Source: Clostridia bacterium
Lineage (GTDB): Bacteria > Bacillota > Clostridia > Oscillospirales > CAG-272
Direction of reading: 5' to 3'
Assembly: GCA_017483195.1 (NCBI GenBank)
Contig: JAFULR010000010.1
Span: forward strand, 12,673-76,672
DNA: 64,000 nt
The translations under genes and the position numbers were made by a program. This document shows positions 7,288 to 60,012 of this stretch, piece after piece; position 1 is the first letter of the stretch, and each line of letters starts with the position of its first letter. Under the pieces are notes generated by a model. It was not told the DNA's origin, did not search any database, and worked only from the letters and a program-made list of their open reading frames with translations.

Positions 7288-7722
7288 ATGAAAAAATTGA
7301 TAGCAACTATATTGATACTTAGCATCGCAAGTCTTTCTGGCTGTTATTTGTTTAAAATTGATTTGGTAGATGCGAGAGGAGCTGTATCCTTTGCGGAGGA
7401 GTTTTGCCTTGCTTTGGGGGAAGACATTGAATTGGCAAAAGAGTATTTAAGTTCCGATTCCACTCCAAGTAAAGATAATCTCCAAGATTTTATAAAAGAA
7501 ATTGAGTTGGAAAATAATGTGTGTTTTTCGGACGGGGTGGTACTAAAGGATCGAGATGGGTTTACATTCAATCCTAAGCCGTATGACTCACTTGTGTGTA
7601 CATATAAGTTTGGCTGTGAGCTTGTAATTGGAAATAGTGTCGTGAATCTTCTTTTTGCTGTTAGAAAAGACGAAAATGGTTATAGTATTGTTCATATTGA
7701 ACAGGGTAAATATCGAACATAG
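7288..7722 (+). CDS. hypothetical lipoprotein
   Basis: Lipoprotein signal (LSIASLSGC); GGAG RBS. Confidence 0.6.
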   Translation: MKKLIATILILSIASLSGCYLFKIDLVDARGAVSFAEEFCLALGEDIELAKEYLSSDSTPSKDNLQDFIKEIELENNVCFSDGVVLKDRDGFTFNPKPYDSLVCTYKFGCELVIGNSVVNLLFAVRKDENGYSIVHIEQGKYRT

Positions 7723-7740
7723 TAAATGGGTACCAGAATT

Positions 7741-8139
7741 ATGAAAAAGTTTTTAGTATTATTGCTTATATTTTCTACTATTTGCTTGTCGGGGTGCGAT
7801 TTTGACAAAGCAGAGACATACGGAAGTGAATTTTGTTATGCTCTAGCGAAGAGCAACGATGTGGCGAAAGAATACCTACACCCCGCTTCAAAGCTAAACG
7901 GAAAAGAATTTGAGAAATTTATCACTAAGCTTGAACAATTTAATGAAATTGATTTTTCAGAAGGGTTGGAAATAATCGACTCTTCATTCACCTCGTCCGC
8001 TTTGGGAGTCGTTTGGGACGGTTACAAATATGAGTATACTTATGAAATATTCGTAAGCGACAAAACAATCATGATATTTTGCGTTATTTTGGATGATAGC
8101 GAAGGATATGGCATTTATAGTTTTGGAATAATCGAATAA
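7741..8139 (+). CDS. hypothetical lipoprotein (paralogue of the preceding gene)
   Basis: MKKFLVLLLIFSTICLSGC lipobox; similar size and architecture to 7288..7722. Confidence 0.6.
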   Translation: MKKFLVLLLIFSTICLSGCDFDKAETYGSEFCYALAKSNDVAKEYLHPASKLNGKEFEKFITKLEQFNEIDFSEGLEIIDSSFTSSALGVVWDGYKYEYTYEIFVSDKTIMIFCVILDDSEGYGIYSFGIIE

Positions 8140-8184: not shown

Positions 8185-8858
8185 TTATTTGGGGATCTTT
8201 ATTATTTCGCTTTCCGTTATGAGGATTTTGACGGGGGTATCGTGGGGGTCTGTTGGGAGCTGTTTTACGAGGAGGTCGGAGTAGGTGAGCCCGACCGATG
8301 TGCCCTTAAAGTCCCTCAAAAAGCGGTCGTAAAAGCCCTTGCCGTAGCCGAGGCGGTTTCCGTTTTCGTCAAATGCGATCGCGGGGACGATGCAGAGCGT
8401 TTTTTCGTCGGGGATGAGGGCGGGGCAGGTGTTATTTGGCTCGAAAAGACCGAATTTTGCGGGGGAAAGGTAGTCGGAAACAATCCCTCCGCCTCGTGCC
8501 TCGGCGCCTTCGCTTACACGGGGGAGGCTTTTGTTGAGGGGAGGGTTGTTTTCGGTTGTGTTATCATTTTTTTCGTGAAAAGCGGGGAGTTCTCTGAATG
8601 TGAGAGTCCCACTTTCGTGGTCGCAGACAGGAAAGGCGATCTTTTTGCCCCACTTTTGAGCCACATCGAGTAGAAAAAGCGGTGAAATTTCGTTATTAAT
8701 TGGGAAATAGAACAAAATTGCGGTCGCGCTCTTGAATTCGTCGAGCTGCGCGATCCTCTCACAGGCGGAGCGGCTTGCGGCGGCAATATAGTCACCGTCG
8801 AGGCTGTCTCGCAGGGCGCGAAGATGCGCGCGGAGGGTGGTTTTTTCGTTCATCATTT
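8185..8858 (-). CDS. 5-formyltetrahydrofolate cyclo-ligase
   Basis: MTHFS-family motifs (...GYGKGFYDR...); start MMNEKTTLRAHLRA overlaps the stop of the upstream gene (ATGA). Confidence 0.75.
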
Positions 8859-9395
8859 GTGGAAAACGCTTTCTGCGATCTCGTCCGCTTTTTCCTTGCC
8901 GAGAAGTGCTTCTACGATGGCGAGTCCGAAATCGTTTGCGCAACCCATACCCTTGGCGGTGATGAACTGACCGTCGCGGACGACCTTTTCATCCGTTACG
9001 ATCGCGCCCTCAAGATAATTTTCAAAGCCGGGGAAGCAGCTCGCGCGCTTTCCTTCAAGGAGTCCGAGCTTGCCGAGAATAAAGGGGGCGGCGCAGATCG
9101 CGCAGACAAGTCCGCCGCAGCCGAGGGCGTTCTGAATGGATACGGAAACGGTCGCGCTCTCGTCAAGATTGGATGCGCCGGGCATACCGCCGGGGAGGAT
9201 TATCGCCTCGGGCTTAGTGGTGCAAAGCTCACACTCGTTTATGTCCGCTATCACGGGGATTCCGTGTGCGCCGACTACCTTATTGTCGGTGCCGATTGCG
9301 ACGGTTCTTACCTCAAGTCCTGCGCGGCGCAGGATATCGACGGGCGCGAGCGCTTCGATCTCTTCAAATCCGTTTGCTAAAAATACGTAGATCAT
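8853..9395 (-). CDS. DJ-1/PfpI family protein
   Basis: 180 aa with a ThiJ/DJ-1 fold and nucleophile-elbow cysteine (AICAAP). Confidence 0.8.
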   Translation of the reverse strand: MIYVFLANGFEEIEALAPVDILRRAGLEVRTVAIGTDNKVVGAHGIPVIADINECELCTTKPEAIILPGGMPGASNLDESATVSVSIQNALGCGGLVCAICAAPFILGKLGLLEGKRASCFPGFENYLEGAIVTDEKVVRDGQFITAKGMGCANDFGLAIVEALLGKEKADEIAESVFHK

Positions 9396-9399
9396 TTTT

Positions 9400-10650
9400 A
9401 CCTCCTTGGGTGGTTGTTTTTATTGGTTTTTTGGGTTTTGTGTTTGGTGGAAGGTGATTTGGCTTTAGAACGGGAACGCCTTCCGTCCCGCTACGCCCCG
9501 CCCCCTCCCCTGCACCCCTCGCCGCCCCCGAGGGGAATGAGTGAGTGCGCTCTCGTAATGAGTGCGTAGCCGAAGGGTTTGCGGTGGGTGCCGATCCCTA
9601 CAAAAGTTAGTTTGGTTTTGGAGCGGACGCGCACAGCGCGCCCCTACGGGTTTGAGGAAAAAGCCGATTGTTTGTACAGACCGTGTTCCTCTCATCCACC
9701 TTGAAAACGCCGAAGGCTTTTTCTCAACCCCTTCCCCTCAGGGGAAGGCTTAGGTTAGTGCGCTTATGCACAAACTCGTAGGGGTCGGCGTCCTCGGCGA
9801 CCCGCGTTCGTGGGAAAGTAACTTTGCATTTGAAACTCTCCCACCACCACTTCGTGGTCCCCCTCCCTCGACAGAGGGAGGCAAGGGTTGTGCCGTTGCC
9901 CTCAACGTAGGGCGACTGTCTTGCTCCCGCCGGGTTGTAGGGAAAAGTACTTCACCTTTGGAAAGTCATAAAGACTCCTTCGTAGATCCCTGCGCGCCAA
10001 GGCGCTTGGTTTTGTCCGTTCCGCTTTGCTGCACTACCAAAACTTCGTCTCGCTGGCGCTCGCTCAGGATGACGTACAGACGGGGCGTTTGCGGTGGGCG
10101 GATGTTTGCTCGGGTCGTCGGGGACGTCGACCCCTACACAATATTAGTTTGCCTTGAAATCGGACGCGCACAGCGCGCCCCTACACGGGTAAGAGCGTCG
10201 CCGTGGGGTTTGTTTTTTGAATTTTGCATTTAGCGGGTGCACGGAGTGCCCCCCTACGAGAGCGAGAGCGTAGCCGAGGGGTTTGAGGTGGGCGGAGGGT
10301 TGCTCTGACGCGCACGAGAAACAAAGGTTAGTTGCCTACTTCGGCAAGAACGCGTCTTTGGTTGCGCCGGGGTTCCCCGAAGTGAGCAACGCGAGCTTTG
10401 GGGGTTCGCGGAAACGGAGTCGTAAGACGACGAGCGTTTTTCGACGGCGCGCCACTATTATTTTAGATAACCACAAAATTCCAAGCGCGGCGCGATGACG
10501 TATAGCCGTTTTGCTGGCGCGCCACTATTATTTGGGATAACCACAAAATTCTACGTGCGGCGAGGTGTCTATACAGGTTGGATATAGCTTTATAGTGTAT
10601 TAGTACGCAAAAAGCCGATATGGTATTAATATATCGGCTTTTATAGAATT
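9400..10650. repeat. mosaic array of GC-rich repeat modules (REP-like 24-mers, tandem 45-nt repeats)
   Basis: No coherent CDS; contains CGGACGCGCACAGCGCGCCCCTAC (x2); tandem GGCGCGCCACTATTATTTnnGATAACCACAAAATTC (x2); segments homologous to 12005..13120 in direct and inverted orientation. Confidence 0.8.
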
Positions 10651-11954
10651 ATTTATTGAAAAAGTCGGGAAGGGAGCTGATCTTGACCTCGGTCTCCTCG
10701 CGTGTGATGAGGTTTTTGACCTTTACGGTGCCGTTTTCAAGCTCGCTGCCGCCCATAATCACGATGTGGGTATAGCCCTCCTTGAAGGCATAGTCGATCT
10801 GCTTGCCGAATTTCTTTGTGCCAAGGTAGAGCGCGCTCGTTATTCCCGCCTCGCGAAGGGATGCGGTGAGTCCTATATATTCCTTATAGGGAACGTCGTT
10901 GAATCTTGCAACGAGCACCTTTGTGTTGCCCTCTGTAAAATCGGGGACGAGGTTATGTGTTACAAGGAAGTTTTCAAGCGTTACGTCGCCCATTCCGTAG
11001 CCAACGCCGCTGACCTTTGCGTTCTTTACGAAAAGTCCAACGAGGTTATCGTATCTGCCGCCGCCGAACATTGCGCGGTTGTTTTCGGGCGCTTCGTCGA
11101 ACACCTCAAAAACGGTGCCGGTATAGTAATCAAGTCCGCGGATGATTCCAAAATCGAATACGCAGTATTTTGCAAGTCCTGTTTCCTCAAGGAGTGCGAA
11201 AAGGTCGGAAAGCTCCTTGGCGCCAACGGAGTCGGGGCAGAGGGCTGTTGCTTCCTCGACGCTCATATTATAGAGCGCGTCGATCTTATTGATCTGCTCG
11301 TCACCCAAGCCGAGTGCCTTCATTTCCTTTTCATATACCTCGCGCGGGATTTTATTCTTTTTATCCACGATCTTTGAAACCTTCTTTGCGCCGTCGGCGT
11401 CGGAATTGCAGATCGCGGAGATAACGTCGTTGAAAAATCTGCGGTTATTGATATGCACCTTGAACATTGTTTCGTCCGCGCCGAAGCCGCGAAGAACGTT
11501 TATAGCGCTTTCGATGACGTCCATATCCGCCTCAAAGCCGTCGCATCCGAAAATATCAACGTTGAGCTGCCAGAATTCGCGAAGACGTCCGCGCTGGGGA
11601 GCCTCGCAACGGTACATATTGGGGATTGCAAACCATTTGAGGGGCATATTAAGGTCATAAATCTTTGCGGCAACCATACGCGCTACGCTTGGAGTCATTT
11701 CAGGTCTGATAGCAAGGTGGCGGTCGCCTCTGTCCATAAAGTTATAGGTCTGGGTGCTTGCAAGCTCCTCGCCGCTTTTTGCCGCGTATATATCGAAGGA
11801 TTCAAGCATGGGCGCGTTATATTCCTCATATGCGGATCTTTCAAGAACCTCGCGGATCTTTCCAAAGAACCAGTTGCGGAAGCGCATCTCTGCAGGGTAG
11901 AAATCTCTTGTGCCTTTATATGGCTGTGTTGATAAAAGTGTGTTGCTCAAAATA
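10649..11954 (-). CDS. hisS: histidine--tRNA ligase
   Basis: Class-II aaRS HisRS motifs (...YKGTRDFYP..., ...GGRYD..., anticodon-binding C-terminus); TTG start at 11954 with AGAGAGGA RBS. Confidence 0.9.
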
Positions 11955-11992
11955 TTTTCCTCTCTTAAAAGATAATAAACATATATACTCAG

Positions 11993-12030
11993 TTTAGTAT
12001 AACACATTTTTTCGCGTTTGTCTATAAGAA
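11993..12030 (-). promoter_or_regulatory. putative sigma-A promoter of hisS (TAGACA-17-TGnTATACT)
   Basis: Minus-strand TAGACA, 17-nt spacer, extended -10 TGTTATACT about 40 nt upstream of the TTG start; no T-box motif found. Confidence 0.3.
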
Positions 12031-13120
12031 TGGGGAAATTTGTTTTATAGATAAACTGTGATTTATCGGGGAGTTTAATAAGTTAGATTAGGTTTGGAAG
12101 GGGAACTCCCTCACCGCCTGCGGCGGAGCTCCCTCCTCGGAAGGAGCCTACTGTTAGGCGAACCTTTGCGTGTATCCGTGATGTTTTAGGTGGGCGGATG
12201 TTTGCTCGGACGCGCACAGCGCGCCCCTACGAGTTTGTTCACCGCGCAAGATCCTTCGGTCGCGTTGCTCCCTCGAGGATGACGCGCGGGTTCCACGAAC
12301 GCAAGCATTCGGCGCGGAGTCGAGGTGTCGCACACAACCCTCGCCTCCCTCTGTCGAGGGAGGGGGACCACGAAGTGGTGGTGGGAGAGTTTCAAATGCA
12401 AAGTTACTTTTCTACGAACGCGGACGCGCAAAGCGCGCCCCTACGAAGGTTGGCGGTGTTTTATAGCAGTGCAGTAGCCATAAATCAATCAAAACGGCTA
12501 CGCACAGAATGCCGCCTTACAGTAGCCCTCTTCCGCAGAAGAGGGTGGCATTGAACTCACGAGCTTGCTCGTTAGTTCCGGTGACGGGTGTAGTTCCCCT
12601 TTTAAAAGAAAAGTTACTTTGCCTTTGGAAAGTCACAAAGACCCCTTCGTAGATCCCTGCACGTTGTGCAGGTTTTGTCCGTTCCGCTTTGCTTCACTAC
12701 CAAAACTTCGTCTCGCTGGCGCTCGCTCAGGATGACGTGTTGAGGTGGGGGGTGCGGTGGGCGGATGTTTGGCTCGGACGCGCACAAGAAATAAAGGTTA
12801 ATTGCCTACTTCAGCAAGAACGCGTTTTTGCTTGCAAAACGGAGTCGTAAGACGACGAGCGTTTTTCGATGGCGCGCCACTATTATTTTGGATAACCACA
12901 AAATTCTACGCGCGGCGAGGCGCCCCTACGGGTTTGATGAGAAAGCCGTTTGTGAGTGCTGGTGCCGTTCCCCTCATCCGTCAGGCATCCGCCTGCCACC
13001 TTCCCCTCAGGGGAAGGCTAAGTGCGCGATAAATCAAAATTTGAACGTTGGGATAAAAGCATATTGAAATAATCGGCTATTTGTGATATAATGGGATAAA
13101 TACGAATGATGGTTGAGGTG
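12005..13120. repeat. second mosaic array of the same repeat modules
   Basis: Shares about 170-nt and about 60-nt segments with 9400..10650 (some direct, some inverted); REP 24-mers at about 12213 and 12424. Confidence 0.8.
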
Positions 13121-13727: not shown

Positions 13728-13816
13728 GGAGGATTATCGAAGTGGTCATAACGAGGCGGTCTTGAAAACCGTTTGCCTTTACGGGCACGAGGGTTCGAAT
13801 CCCCCATCCTCCGCCA
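13728..13816 (+). tRNA. tRNA-Ser (anticodon UGA)
   Basis: Manual fold: 7-bp acceptor GGAGGAT/ATCCTCC; 3-bp D-stem; anticodon stem GCGGT/ACCGT with loop CTTGAAA; long variable arm; T-loop TTCGAAT; discriminator G plus encoded CCA. Confidence 0.85.
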
Positions 13817-54256: not shown

Positions 54257-54560
54257 ATGAAGGTTTATTAAATTGAGATTTAGCGAGGGATTAGCACAAA
54301 CTCATTTTTAATTGAAGTAACCTTGTAGGGACCGGCGTCCTCGACGGTCCAATTCAAAAGCAAGGTAACTTTTGTTCAAAAATGTTGGATTTTGTTTGTG
54401 CGTAGCCGTGAAATTTGATGTTATTTCATCGTTATGGACCGTCGAGGACGCCGGTCCCTACAGGTTAGTACAGATTTTATTGGTATTGCCTCGAAGCTGA
54501 TTAAAGCTTTTTTGGTTACTTTTTTCTCGAAAAAAGTGACCGATAAATCAAAATTTGAAC
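54240..54560. repeat. about 320-nt palindrome-bearing repeat unit (copy 1, inverted relative to copies 2 and 3)
   Basis: Reverse complement of 55960..56350; contains 2 copies of GGGACCGGCGTCCTCGACGGTCC. Confidence 0.85.
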
Positions 54561-55959: not shown

Positions 55960-56350
55960 TTCCGTTTTTTTGTTTCAAATTTTGATTTATGGGTTACTTT
56001 TTTCGAGAAAAAAGTAACCAAAAAAGCTTTAATCAGCTTCGCGGCAATACCAATAAAATCTGTACTAACCTGTAGGGACCGGCGGTCTCACTGCGGTTCG
56101 GTCACGCTCAGGGAAAAACAACACACCGTGTTGTTTTTTAAGACCCTCGCGCCGCTTCGCTACCCCGACGGTCCATAACGATGAAATAACATCAAATTTC
56201 ACGGCACGCACAAACAAAATCCAACATTTTTGAACAAAAGTTACTTTGCTTTTGAATTGGACCGTCGGGGACGCCGGTCCCTACAAGGTTACTTCAATTA
56301 AAAATGAGTTTGTGCTAATCCCTCGCTAAATCCAGATTTATCTTGGGTTA
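55960..56350. repeat. about 390-nt repeat unit (copy 2)
   Basis: Inverted with respect to 54240..54560; direct with respect to 58280..58620. Confidence 0.85.
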
Positions 56351-58279: not shown

Positions 58280-58620
58280 GGTTCAAATTTTGATTTGTAG
58301 GTATGTTAGTTGAAACAAAACGGACAGTCGAGGACGCCTGTCCCTACGAGTTTGCAAATCATTTTTTAGTAAATTATAGCCATTTGTTGCTAATATGGCT
58401 ATTATCTTCGCAAAAAATTACCGCTGTCTGTTGTAGGGACCGGCGTCCCCGACGGTCCATAACGATGAAATGACATCAAATTTCACGGCTATGCACAAAC
58501 AAAATCCAACATTTTTGAACAAAAGTTACTTTGCTTTTGAATTGGACCGTCGAGGACGCCGGTCCCTACAAGGTTACTTCAATTAAAAATGAGTTTGTAC
58601 TAATCCCCCGCTAAATCCCA
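58280..58620. repeat. about 340-nt repeat unit (copy 3)
   Basis: About 95% identical over about 190 nt to copy 2; carries a variant palindrome GGACAGTCGAGGACGCCTGTCC. Confidence 0.85.
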
Positions 58621-58694
58621 ATTTATCTCTATCTATTGAATATTTTGATTGTCTGTGCTATAATTAATCCATCAAACACAAGGAGCGCGAGGAT

Positions 58695-59111
58695 ATGAAG
58701 GGTTACAACGTTATCGTGGTTTTTAGCAAGGAGGCTGACAGGATGCTGATGTGTAAGAGGGTGAAGGATCCTTACAAGGGACTTTCGAATTTTGTCGGCG
58801 GCAAGATAGAGGCGGGTGAGGACGGGCTTTGTGCCGCGTACCGCGAGCTTTTTGAGGAGACTGCGATAAAAAGGGAGGACATAAGGCTGACGCACCTGAT
58901 GGATTTTACCTATCATATGGCGCGCGAGTACGTTGAGGTTTACGTTGGCAGGCTTAATAAGGACGTTGAGATCAAGGGCGATGAAAATATCCTTTATTGG
59001 TCGGATCTCGATCACGATTTCTTTGATCCCGCCCTCTATGCAGGTGAGGGCAATATCGGACACATTATGATGCATATTGGGTTTGATAGGGAGAGGCTGT
59101 TGGAAATATGA
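58695..59111 (+). CDS. NUDIX hydrolase
   Basis: Nudix box GGKIEAGEDGLCAAYRELFEETA. Confidence 0.8.
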   Translation: MKGYNVIVVFSKEADRMLMCKRVKDPYKGLSNFVGGKIEAGEDGLCAAYRELFEETAIKREDIRLTHLMDFTYHMAREYVEVYVGRLNKDVEIKGDENILYWSDLDHDFFDPALYAGEGNIGHIMMHIGFDRERLLEI

Positions 59112-59638
59112 ATGATAATTTACCGAAAAGGAAGAATATACGGTTAAGAGAGCACGATTATTCCGCGCCTGGCGCGTATTTCATAACGATATGCACGAAA
59201 AATAAAGAAAAATTACTATGGAACGGTGAGCTCGATATACAAAATTTTGATTGGGAACTTGTAGGGGCGCGCTTTGCGCGTCCGCGGAATTTACCATTAT
59301 CAAAAATAGGTGTTGTAGTTGAAGAAAATTTGAACAAATGGAATGATACGTATGGAAATGCATATTTGTCACCGTATGTGATTATGCCAAATCATTTACA
59401 TATTATGGTTGTGATATTACCTGATGAAGAAGACGGACGCGCAAAGCGCGCCCCTACGGTTAGCACGATGATTAATCAATTCAAAGGAGCCGTAACGAAG
59501 CAATTAGGCGAAAATATATGGCAAAAATTGTTTTACGACCACATAATTCGAGATAAACACGATTATGAAGAAATATCGAAATATATTTACGAAAACCCAC
59601 TCAAATGGCAATTTGATGAATTGTATTTTGATGAATAA
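59108..59638 (+). CDS. REP-associated tyrosine transposase (RAYT, IS200-like TnpA)
   Basis: HxH motif (MPNHLHIMV) and catalytic-Tyr region (YDHIIRDKHDYEEISKYIYENPLKW); ORF contains two in-frame inverted copies of the genomic REP 24-mer. Confidence 0.7.
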   Translation: MNDNLPKRKNIRLREHDYSAPGAYFITICTKNKEKLLWNGELDIQNFDWELVGARFARPRNLPLSKIGVVVEENLNKWNDTYGNAYLSPYVIMPNHLHIMVVILPDEEDGRAKRAPTVSTMINQFKGAVTKQLGENIWQKLFYDHIIRDKHDYEEISKYIYENPLKWQFDELYFDE

Positions 59639-59652
59639 ATGTTGGGGGCATT

Positions 59653-59976
59653 ATGTTAGGAAAAATTGTAAGGGTCATAGTTGACAGGCCGATTGGCAGT
59701 CGTCATCCTAATTATGAGGATTTGGTTTATCCTGTGAATTACGGTTACGTTGAGGGTATTATTGCGCCCGATGGCGAGGAGCAGGACGTATATATTTTAG
59801 GGATCGACCGACCGATAAAGGAATACGTTGGCAAGGCCGTTGCTATCGTGCATCGCTTTGATGATATTGAGGATAAATGGGTGGTAGCTCCCGAGGGCGC
59901 GCATTACACAAGGGAAGAAATAATAGATCAAATTGAGTTTCAGGAAAAGTTTTTTAAATACGAGATCATAATGTAA
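59653..59976 (+). CDS. short inorganic-pyrophosphatase-like protein
   Basis: 107 aa; DRPIGSRHP...YPVNYGYVEG...DGEEQDVYILG resembles the family-I PPase core; much shorter than canonical Ppa. Confidence 0.35.
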   Translation: MLGKIVRVIVDRPIGSRHPNYEDLVYPVNYGYVEGIIAPDGEEQDVYILGIDRPIKEYVGKAVAIVHRFDDIEDKWVVAPEGAHYTREEIIDQIEFQEKFFKYEIIM

Positions 59977-59977
59977 A

Positions 59978-60012
59978 AAGCTCCCGACGGAAATTTCCGT
60001 CGGGAGTAATTA
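59978..60012. terminator. bidirectional terminator
   Basis: CTCCCGACGG-aaattt-CCGTCGGGAG, flanked by A-run and T-run. Confidence 0.65.

Follow-up and report, generated by a model that had tools for sequence, protein, structure and literature searches.

A RAYT-type transposase gene of a Clostridia bacterium with an inverted pair of REP elements inside its reading frame

A RAYT/TnpA-REP-like HUH-Y1 gene in the window analysed here (the whole stretch of 64,000 nucleotides of Clostridia bacterium DNA) contains, within its own reading frame, two inverted copies of a REP element that is also dispersed intergenically. We propose, at a probability of about 60%, that this 176-aa ORF (59108..59638, + strand) encodes a functional RAYT/TnpA-REP-type enzyme that acts on single-stranded DNA and is resident in the chromosome, its predicted catalytic residues being H96/H98 of the HUH motif and Tyr159, and that the gene represents an "internalised REPtron", in which the cognate inverted REP pair lies inside the reading frame and substrate and recognition module are thus kept linked.

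Results

The ORF had been called a RAYT in an earlier note made from the letters alone, and this call is borne out by a match to the TnpA-REP structure 4er8 (E=3e-7), whose alignment covers the HUH, WQ..F.DH.IR and Y..NP motifs and which is also the best structural match. H96-L-H98, the counterpart of E. coli H59-M-H61 in the alignment, lies in the modeled strand 96-103 and is invariant in 43 sequences; so are Y159, N163 and P164 of the Y-x-x-x-N-P signature, which is represented by YIYENP (Y159 codon at 59582..59584, +) and aligns to E. coli Y115/N119. The RAYT-specific WQ..[FY].[DE]H.IR block is present as IWQKLFYDHIIR, aligned to E. coli IWQPRFWEHAIR, with Q139, H145 and R148 invariant in the 43-sequence alignment. 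The AF2 model (pLDDT 83) adopts the TnpA-REP fold, its top PDB match by Foldseek being 4er8_A (E=4.9e-8, TM 0.55-0.58), followed by IS200/IS605 transposases. Curated profiles score below their thresholds, NCBIfam NF047646 (REP_Tyr_transpos) with 61.3 of the 80 bits required and over aa 85-167 only, and Pfam PF01797 (Y1_Tnp) with 16.7 against 23, because an extra N-terminal β-hairpin and the REP segments break the match. The ORF is under purifying selection (dN/dS 0.07-0.20 versus orthologs), and tblastn revealed no second, uninterrupted RAYT paralog in the window.

Upstream, the stop codon of a NUDIX hydrolase gene (58695..59111, +), a neighbor conserved in five related genomes, overlaps the RAYT start ATG by 4 nt (ATGA). 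Downstream, 14 nt past the RAYT stop, lies a 107-aa ORF with no Pfam hit (ORF107; 59653..59976, +), which is a conserved neighbor in most orthologous loci. A promoter-like site at 58636-58664 and a bidirectional terminator-like hairpin at 59980..60007, both coming from a consensus scan only, may respectively precede and close a putative NUDIX-RAYT-ORF107 operon. The order NUDIX-RAYT-ORF107-gltD recurs in five genomes with flank identities of ~80-98%; close RAYT paralogs also occur in other contexts, and several loci hold two genes.

The 24-mer GTAGGGGCGCGCTTTGCGCGTCCG occupies 59261-59284 on the + strand (internal REP1, sense), where it encodes VGARFARP (aa 52-59), and its exact reverse complement occupies 59434-59457 (internal REP2, antisense, identical 24-mer), where it encodes (D)GRAKRAPT (aa 110-117). 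The earlier note had reported this pair correctly except for placing the second copy one base off, at 59435-59458, and the peptides it had listed, ..ELVGARFARPRN.. and ..DGRAKRAPTV.., are indeed part of the translation. Each 24-mer consists of a GTAG head followed by a hairpin whose 8-bp stem includes one G.T pair and whose loop is 3 nt long; as DNA it folds at -8.6 kcal/mol. It has the form of a GTAG-type REP, in which a hairpin of 20-40 nt is preceded on its 5' side by the tetranucleotide GTAG, and GTAGGG does not vary among 48 distinct sequences. The four recurring intergenic copies that had been placed approximately were all found, at 9624..9647, 10161..10184 and 12207..12230, each with one mismatch confined to the loop (TGT), and at 12421..12444 as an exact copy; all are on the minus strand, positioned either side of a hisS gene. 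Six matches with <=3 mismatches in the window compare with 0.00 expected from 100 dinucleotide shuffles. With these four intergenic copies in the 64 kb and 94 exact metagenomic copies in 80 stretches, none of them in a RAYT gene, the element is dispersed, multi-copy and mainly extragenic, as GTAG-type REPs are, and the proposed tie between this REP type and its RAYT is upheld in that the internal 24-mers are genuine REPs of the intergenic type. At metagenome loci of 55% GC, 91% of bases fall in stop-free stretches, so that asking whether a copy lies inside a long ORF is uninformative there. Outside the gene, head-out doublets of the 24-mer exist (76-99 nt) with unrelated spacers. Dispersed REP families include REP-A and REP-B (GTAGGGACCGGCGTCCTCGACGGTCC).

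Two other origins or roles were rejected. The intergenic copies are not remnants of RAYT pseudogenes, as no similarity extends past the 24-mer and 94/94 metagenomic copies lie outside RAYT homologs; and REP1 is not an intrinsic terminator within the gene, as it lacks a T-run. In the terminator scan only REP2 fits, weakly and on the antisense strand. An Rfam search of the window returned a tRNA as its sole hit and no known RNA family at the REPs.

The earlier note had envisaged a RAYT interrupted by REPs. A recent interruption of this particular gene is contradicted by its homologs in GTDB genomes (n=80, different species, 37-65% identity), 70 of which carry both REPs, nine one and one none, the paired elements being head-out, GTAG-headed hairpins at the same two positions with a head-to-head span of 194 nt in 37/69. 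Since orthologs at the same chromosomal slot carry the pair as well, it is an old, maintained architecture of the whole subfamily. REP density is 3.5/kb inside the gene, 1.1 in the 300-bp flanks and 0.10 elsewhere, i.e. 36x background inside. The window gene has no REP in its 4-nt upstream overlap or 14-nt downstream gap, and only 4/80 homologs have REPs in both 300-bp flanks; the pair that classically flanks the gene thus sits inside it here. Some ORFs contain extra copies (P0047, L012, L037), and L058 provides a bridge case, in which a RAYT with REP1 inside it is in addition surrounded by classical BIME arrays. Matches to a gene's own REP are found at 0.55 per 10 kb in its own flanks versus 0.12 across loci, but only 35/79 loci have a matching external REP within <=20 kb, and many genomes share REP types, so that any one-to-one cognate assignment is tentative. 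We did not find the internal arrangement in the literature searched.

Where the elements fall in the protein was mapped by sequence alignment and the AF2 model. As the earlier note had it, they occupy the intervals that separate N-terminal strand, HUH motif and Tyr region. β1 and β2 are separated by 49 residues here versus 22 in E. coli TnpA-REP, and REP1 falls in the extra segment, which forms a β-hairpin at 48-60 in the AF2 model; REP1 codes for its turn and second strand, just before α1 (E. coli αB). REP2 codes for the loop and N-cap before α3 (αC), aligned to 4er8 D72-E79, the loop being modeled with low confidence (pLDDT ~72). The suggestion that REPs had been inserted in-frame into loops is thus supported for REP1, whose segment is extra relative to E. 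coli TnpA-REP, but not for REP2, which replaces a loop of similar length with no net insertion. The 149 nt in between (59285..59433, +) encode α1, β2 and the HUH strand (H96 at 59393-59395, H98 at 59399-59401), and REP2 is followed by the codons of α3 and the adjoining IWQKLF segment (aa 118-141; 59459..59530, +), by alignment the equivalent of the E. coli TnpA-REP helix that recognizes the hairpin. In the E. coli enzyme, αB and αC hold the REP hairpin (PMC3479197, PMC8266576).

Selection acts on the DNA of the element, whereas the encoded peptide drifts. One could argue that VGA..RP and GR..APT are structural motifs under ordinary protein conservation, with palindromy as a by-product, and in the 43-sequence alignment G53, P59, G110 and P116 are indeed invariant and V52 and T117 nearly so. 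We nevertheless give this explanation next to no credence. First, the reading frame of the element varies (REP1 is in frame 1 in L024/27/29, REP2 in another frame in L061/74/75/80), such that the same DNA yields unrelated peptides (RRGELRSP; ..SPLR; ..PPLP); these frame-shifted cases rule out conservation at the peptide level. Second, the positions flanked by these invariant residues are hypervariable, yet always reverse-complement-compatible between the two sites; perfectly sense/antisense-compatible peptides occur in 36/79 distant cluster representatives versus ~5% in controls. Third, third positions are frozen, their identity reaching 0.94 within REP codons as against 0.63 elsewhere, and REP nucleotides remain identical at 47/48 positions at a dS of 1.4. 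What the alignment reveals are therefore not ordinary conserved residues, the outcome the earlier note had seen as speaking against its own reading, but segments conserved in position, hypervariable in sequence and tracking REP types.

The hairpins themselves are likewise preserved while their sequence changes. There are 78 distinct 24-mers among 147, and stems vary between genes with compensatory changes: 67 double-sided covariation cells were counted versus 18 expected, in a hairpin set chosen by a hairpin filter that nearly all genes passed, and slid controls were ~40% paired. The Y-Y preceding GTAG and the G trailing the stem are common to internal and external REPs. The two arms evolve in concert: those of one gene mismatch at 1.5/24 positions, those of different genes at 7.6/24. 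In the L001-L010 clade, two distinct arm variants are stably maintained.

These data bear on two further alternatives. The 24-mers could pair in the mRNA, either as a long-range duplex or as two local hairpins, and so throttle translation or invite RNase cleavage, which would keep a potentially dangerous nuclease at a very low level. Such expression control has been proposed earlier for REP hairpins lowering RAYT or IS200 expression (Di Nocera 2013, PMC3733652), the arms are nearly identical within most genes, and when 59240-59480 is folded as RNA, the two REPs join in a duplex of 24+ bp (MFE -83.6 kcal/mol, z = -6.5). However, in the 34 genes whose arms differ, 19 stem differences hit both partners, five give G.T and none is mispaired, so that each arm stays self-paired and local hairpins are kept at the cost of the long-range duplex. 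The two variants stably held by the L001-L010 clade also count against it, and an RNA structure needs neither an invariant unpaired GTAG head nor a trailing G nor identity with intergenic REPs. We consider expression control improbable as the explanation of the pair; mRNA hairpins or the long-range stem are likely to influence how the gene is expressed, but as a side effect and not as the primary one.

Alternatively, the perfect 24-bp inverted repeat could act as an intragenic inverton that flips its 149-bp core, phase variation in which a premature stop, which the inverted orientation would indeed bring in, turns the RAYT cleanly off. Against this, ~90 assembled loci with the gene contain no copy in inverted orientation, no invertase is adjacent, one clade stably keeps arms differing by 2-3 nt, and it is left unexplained why each arm should be a GTAG-headed hairpin matching dispersed REPs; we regard it as very unlikely. 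An alternative protein from the inverted segment was rejected, given a stop in the antisense frame.

REP type co-varies with the recognition helix α3 (partial Mantel 0.55-0.63, 0/300 permutations) and not with the HUH region. The NUDIX-RAYT-ORF107 slot alone is occupied by four REP types, the GTAGGGGCGCGCTTTGCGCGTCCG of the window and GAGCACTGTGTGCTC, GCGCACCGTGTGCGT and GGGCACTCCGTGCAC. A ~330-bp tract with both REPs and the DNA-binding core (approximately 59200..59530, +) was exchanged between alleles within one species, being ~70-72% identical to the L083/L084 allele of the same species within flanks of 93-100%. This was ordinary homologous recombination and not a REP-precise cassette exchange, as its boundaries (~59200, ~59530) fall in conserved coding sequence, some 30-70 nt beyond the REPs. 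The co-variation could be plain linkage within recombination tracts instead of co-adaptation, for REP2 adjoins α3 and, in genes with mixed arms, α3 follows REP2.

It is also conceivable that REPs simply landed in two permissive loops of an ancestral RAYT and have since been refreshed by REP-to-REP conversion or template switching, with no use to enzyme or host. Intragenic REPs are known (Di Nocera 2013, PMC3733652), the peptides map to the tip of a β-hairpin and to a low-confidence loop of the model, the reading frame is not fixed, some ORFs have extra copies, and one REP has been lost in nine genes and both in one. Neutral hitch-hiking does not, however, readily account for the retention of both sites and of the head-out orientation in 70/80 genes across 37-65% protein identity, for synonymous sites frozen at dS >1 or for an in-gene density 36x background; and neither placement directly upstream of two DNA-binding helices nor co-variation with α3 would be expected from random tolerated insertions. 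We therefore judge it a poor candidate.

Discussion

The internalised REPtron is our preferred explanation, and the following mechanism can be envisaged. The enzyme would bind or cleave the internal REPs as its substrates whenever the gene that encodes it is single-stranded. With a distance of just 0-70 nt between the REPs and the codons for the recognition helices, substrate and specificity module would be linked near-absolutely, a single recombination event would move a matched enzyme-target pair together, and the gene would always hold a seed copy of its own REP. Homogeneity with the genomic REP pool may reflect selection for recognition, recombination or template switching, or both.

A REPtron is a tnpA-REP/RAYT gene flanked by REP/BIME (Nunvar 2010 PMC2817692; Ton-Hoang 2012 PMC3333891; Corneloup 2021 PMC8266576), the gene being described in the literature as "always flanked" by REPs. 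The present case shares with it an HUH-Y1 enzyme with RAYT motifs, inverted GTAG-headed hairpin REPs that are also dispersed intergenically, and enzyme-REP co-evolution; the conserved chromosomal slot may likewise resemble that of a housekeeping gene. It differs in that the inverted pair is inside the ORF, translated, and fixed in position beside the codons of DNA-binding helices, in that non-coding flanks are practically absent around the window gene (a 4-nt overlap before it, 14 nt after it), and in that paralogs occur at other loci. The two inverted, head-out REPs and the external doublets of the 24-mer also recall BIMEs and REPINs (Bertels & Rainey 2011 PMC3116915); the two stable arm variants of one clade are reminiscent of units Y and Z in E. 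coli BIMEs, and in L058 two variants together make up a true BIME array. Here, however, the "linker" measures 130-240 nt and encodes the catalytic HUH core, whereas a REPIN has a short spacer, is repeated as a unit and can fold into one long hairpin; in the window gene the REPs are separated by 149 nt of coding sequence that is unique, and the whole unit is not repeated in the genome.

The intragenic REPs of Di Nocera et al. (2013, PMC3733652) are similarly GTAG-tagged palindromes that coding regions tolerate, and orthologs in some cases share the insertion site. Those are sporadic and in unrelated genes (replication and repair), whereas here the host gene is that of the REP's own enzyme and two copies are conserved throughout the family in a fixed inverted geometry. 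IS200/IS605 elements (IS608, ISDra2) have the related Y1 HUH fold, sub-terminal hairpins recognized in single-stranded form and, on the 5' side of the hairpin, a tetranucleotide that acts in cleavage-site choice. Their ends, however, flank the gene on the same strand and they are multi-copy and mobile as a unit, whereas the hairpins described here are on opposite strands within the ORF of a gene that resides in a fixed chromosomal slot, with no second copy in the window.

A bolder proposal, which we put forward tentatively and would not ourselves bet on, is that of a self-referential specificity cassette, in which the DNA target of the enzyme is interspersed with the coding sequence for the protein surface that reads this target and encodes part of that surface itself, so that one ~330-bp recombination would re-programme REP specificity and at the same time install the seed copy of the new REP. 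If true, it would offer a concrete mechanism for the birth of REP families and for lasting RAYT-REP matching. With respect to this proposal, it may be mentioned that REP1 leads into αB and that the α3 N-cap encoded by REP2 corresponds in position to R76-R78 of the E. coli protein.

There are also consequences for annotation. Tools that scan extragenic flanks alone (Bertels 2017) would miss internal REPs. Curated HMMs under-score these proteins, and wherever dispersed REP copies fall within spurious ORFs, peptides resembling VGA..RP or GR..APT would presumably result. RAREFAN probably considers extragenic flanks only as well, in which case it too would miss internal REPs.

Open questions in this field include by what route REPs spread and what keeps each RAYT matched to a REP family of its own. 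Close homologs of the present gene number ~2,300. In this subfamily, which has thousands of members in gut Clostridia, RAYT-REP co-evolution is directly testable, as one locus offers a natural allelic series of four REP types, each with its matching α3 variant, and the mixed-arm chimeras together with one classical/internal hybrid (L058) provide further material for such tests.

A RAYT gene with two REPs in its reading frame

The ORF at 59108-59638 (176 aa) had been called a RAYT, a REP-associated HUH-Y1 enzyme (TnpA-REP), in an earlier note, and this identity holds: it aligns with E. coli TnpA-REP (PDB 4er8, E=3e-7) in the HUH motif (H96/H98 to H59/H61), the IWQ..F.DH.IR block and the YIxxNP motif (Y159/N163 to Y115/N119), and the best solved-structure match of its AlphaFold model (pLDDT 83) is again 4er8, followed by IS200/IS605 transposases. 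Curated cut-offs are missed (NCBIfam REP_Tyr_transpos, 61 against 80; Pfam Y1_Tnp, 16.7 against 23). Catalytic residues without variation in a 43-sequence alignment and a dN/dS of 0.07-0.20 against orthologs mark it as a working gene. The RAYT start codon (ATG) overlaps the stop codon of a NUDIX gene, and the following 107-aa ORF (ORF107, 59653-59976) begins 14 nt past the RAYT stop. A promoter-like site lies 5' of NUDIX and a bidirectional terminator-like hairpin 3' of the third gene; the three genes are apparently co-transcribed.

Two inverted copies of the 24-mer GTAGGGGCGCGCTTTGCGCGTCCG lie within this frame and are translated: REP1 on the plus strand at 59261-59284 (VGARFARP) and its exact reverse complement, REP2, at 59434-59457 ((D)GRAKRAPT). 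Both had been described previously, the second one base too high. Four further copies with 0-1 mismatch, reported at the same time, were likewise recovered at 9624, 10161, 12207 and 12421; all are intergenic, on the minus strand and distributed on both sides of hisS, and shuffled sequence gave zero matches. A REP of the classical GTAG type, the unit consists of a GTAG head left unpaired, a GC-rich stem of 8 bp that includes one G.T pair, and a 3-nt loop.

On either side of hisS (10649-12007, minus strand) lie non-coding mosaics of ~1 kb (9400-10650 and 12010-13000), which are dense with several different GTAG-headed hairpins and resemble in layout arrays of BIMEs (inverted REP pairs with a linker); no Rfam family matched them. 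Approximately 400 nt of modules are duplicated in direct order on either side (9943-10365 and 12610-12835; 10412-10492 and 12837-12917), and a 91-nt inverted repeat (97%) joins 9802-9892 with 12333-12423. The sole Rfam match in the window, a tRNA gene (13728-13813), adjoins this region. A second REP family, GTAGGGACCGGCGTCC[T/C]CGACGGTCC, with a 9-bp stem and a 4-nt loop, forms head-out doublets of exactly 137 nt each at 54325-54461 and 58433-58569 and singletons at 56284 and 58347 (both minus); one of its clusters lies directly 5' of the NUDIX-RAYT operon. Since the internal REPs of a more distant RAYT subfamily (for example L041, L063, L070 and L079) have this 9/4 geometry, the genome probably contains another RAYT elsewhere.

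The internal pair across the family

In the best 120 of 2,288 homologous proteins, the peptides at the two REP sites co-vary as reverse-complement pairs (site 1/site 2: ARFARP/AKRAP, AHRVRP/TRCAP, EHCVLP/STQCSP, GHSVHP/CTECPP, ATCGRP/RPQVAP and others). A frame-agnostic hairpin scan covered 80 loci in the genomes of different Clostridia species (37-65% protein identity): 70 genes have a forward GTAG hairpin in their first half and a reverse one in their second, nine carry only one, and one carries neither. Measured from head to head, the pair spans 194 nt in 37 of 69 genes. In 36 of 79 cluster representatives (clusters at 50% identity, drawn from an exhaustive search with 18,273 matches at E<=1e-3), a single DNA segment together with its exact reverse complement could encode the two site peptides, as compared with 18/393 cross-protein pairs and 5/79 reversed sequences.

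Some members carry extra REPs within the ORF (P0047, P0119, L012 and L037): the REP1 segment of P0047 is tandemly duplicated (VGANCVRPQNSIDPQVFDWHSVGANCVRPQN), L037 has two adjoining REP2 copies (gene nt 323 and 347) and L012 an added REP near its 5' end (gene nt 34). Many of 150 cluster representatives are 200-250 aa long with split matches, perhaps as a result of extra internal REPs. In L036 (1606-2171) the homolog is broken into two ORFs by a frameshift exactly at REP2, which may reflect either misassembly at the hairpin or a true pseudogene.

Constraint acts on DNA

The 147 internal REP sites represent 78 distinct 24-mers. The 8-bp/3-nt class comprises 48 distinct sequences, which all have GTAGGG and whose inner stems vary with full compensation: 67 double-sided stem changes versus 18 in shuffles and 100% pairing versus ~40% with a slid partner, in a set pre-selected by a hairpin filter that nearly all genes passed. 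Third-codon-position identity in the L001-L010 clade is 94% in REP codons versus 63% elsewhere, and the window and L081 share 47/48 REP bases at saturated synonymous sites (dS 1.4). Internal and external REPs also agree in their unpaired surroundings, with pyrimidines at -1/-2 and a G following the stem in 81-92%. Plain conservation of the encoded peptide is refuted by REPs read in other frames, REP1 as RRGELRSP (L024, L027, L029) and REP2 as ..SPLR or ..PPLP (L061, L074, L075, L080). The conserved level is the DNA element and not the peptide.

The two arms of one gene differ on average by 1.5/24 positions, versus 7.6/24 between genes. Where they are unequal, 19 stem differences hit both partners, five are G.T and none is mispaired; because arm differences always leave each arm paired, the conserved object is each local hairpin and not the long-range REP1:REP2 duplex. 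Autoregulation at the mRNA level could perceivably employ that duplex, for which a long-range stem is indeed predicted (z -6.5); however, stem compensation is local, GTAG is invariant and internal REPs are identical with external ones, and we consider it unlikely that this is their main function. That the inverted arms constitute an intragenic inverton seems far-fetched. Template-switch mutation in quasi-palindromes may add to REP homogenisation under any reading.

Internal, flanking and dispersed REPs

The nearest established system is the REPtron, a RAYT gene that is "always flanked" by REPs according to the papers that defined it (Nunvar 2010, PMC2817692; Ton-Hoang 2012, PMC3333891). There the REPs flank by definition, whereas here the pair is inside the gene, in the manner of a BIME with the HUH core encoded in its linker, and both flanks are occupied in only 4/80 genes. 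REP density per kb is 3.5 within RAYT genes, 1.1 in the 300-bp flanks and 0.10 elsewhere. Intragenic REPs are already known in unrelated genes (Di Nocera 2013, PMC3733652), and Bertels 2017 analysed extragenic flanks alone. The RAYT/REP literature searched, a partial corpus with most subscription journals outside it, contained no account of REPs lying within RAYT genes, so that absence is no proof.

With REPs assigned to RAYTs by neighbourhoods of <=20 kb, internal REPs recur in their own neighbourhood 4.5 times as often as in other loci, and 35/79 loci hold at least one such copy. L058 is a bridge case, an array-surrounded RAYT that also carries an internal REP: BIME-like arrays on both sides (7491-8126 and 8655-8919; period 81-82 nt) alternate a GATC-type REP on the plus strand with a GACC-type REP on the minus strand, and the plus type occupies internal site 1, site 2 being decayed. 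Simple ORF calling misreads its array as an N-terminal extension (GDLRSPAEP.., GDHRSPLR..).

A metagenome scan found the exact 24-mer of the window 94 times in 80 stretches, six times as head-out doublets with unrelated spacers; none of the 94 copies lies inside a RAYT homolog. These JGI contigs (L090-L169; Ga0123352/53/55, Ga0131853, Ga0082212 and others) have ~55% GC versus 44% in the window, and one REP sequence is thus common to compositionally very different genomes, which suggests either that the RAYT-REP pair spread horizontally or that different genomes converged because few hairpins are workable.

Module exchange and the recognition helices

The order NUDIX-RAYT-ORF107-gltD recurs in L081, L083/84, L088 and L089, except that L088 lacks the ORF107 gene and the short L089 contig ends past its ORF107 homolog. 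ORF107 has no Pfam match and lies directly 3' of RAYT in most orthologous loci (L081-L084, L089). Four different REP types occur across these loci and the arms match each other in every case; one type, GGGCACTCCGTGCAC, is also intergenic in the window at 10235-10257. This element, GTAGGGGGGCACTCCGTGCACCC (minus strand), and the internal REPs of the L089 ortholog (P0029, VGGHSVHP/GCTECPPT) have identical sequences; therefore REP types of other RAYT alleles or paralogs are also present in this genome.

Between the window and L083, neighbouring genes are 95-100% and the RAYT gene ends 93-96% identical, versus only ~72% at gene nt 91-430 (about 59200-59530). Because this divergent core lies between flanks of 93-100% identity, a ~330-bp segment with both REPs was replaced by recombination within one species. 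Its breakpoints fall in conserved coding sequence, not in the REPs, and every stem change is compensated within its arm and recurs in the other arm.

Mapped by sequence alignment and the AF2 model, REP1 codes for the turn and the second strand of a β-hairpin (48-60), an addition compared with E. coli TnpA-REP (β1-β2 distance 49 vs 22 residues), and lies six residues ahead of helix α1. The REP2 peptide, a lower-confidence loop (110-117) that leads straight into helix 118-133, aligns to E. coli D72-E79, including R78. In the E. coli complex, αB and αC/α3 hold the REP hairpin, α3 in the minor groove, through R46, R78, K81, K82, Q83, T85, H86, K91 and R97 (PMC3479197; PMC8266576). In the alignment with 4er8, helix α1 corresponds to αB and helix 118-133 to α3. 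With N-/C-terminal divergence controlled, the partial Mantel correlation of REP-peptide distance is 0.55 and 0.63 with α3 distance (0/300 permutations) and weaker with that of α1 (0.22-0.38); no correlation was seen with the HUH strand region (-0.07, 0.13). Where a gene has mixed arms, α3 tracks REP2 and α1 tracks REP1. This co-variation fits either co-adaptation or simple linkage. Neutral hitch-hiking of REPs in permissive loops strikes us as improbable.

Taken together, the sequence comparisons show a functional RAYT-type enzyme whose gene contains, conserved and translated, a head-out pair of REPs of its own type. The pair is under DNA-level constraint, the REPs change in concert with the adjoining recognition-helix codons, and modules have been exchanged within a species. 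We favor, with a probability of about 0.6, an internalised REPtron, in which the internal REPs are genuine enzyme sites whose placement binds the target to the specificity module. They would serve as such in single-stranded DNA, where the sense strand would offer REP1 and the antisense strand REP2. Target and specificity module would then be inseparable, so that, as we propose, the matched pair may move in one recombination event and the gene would always carry a seed REP copy.
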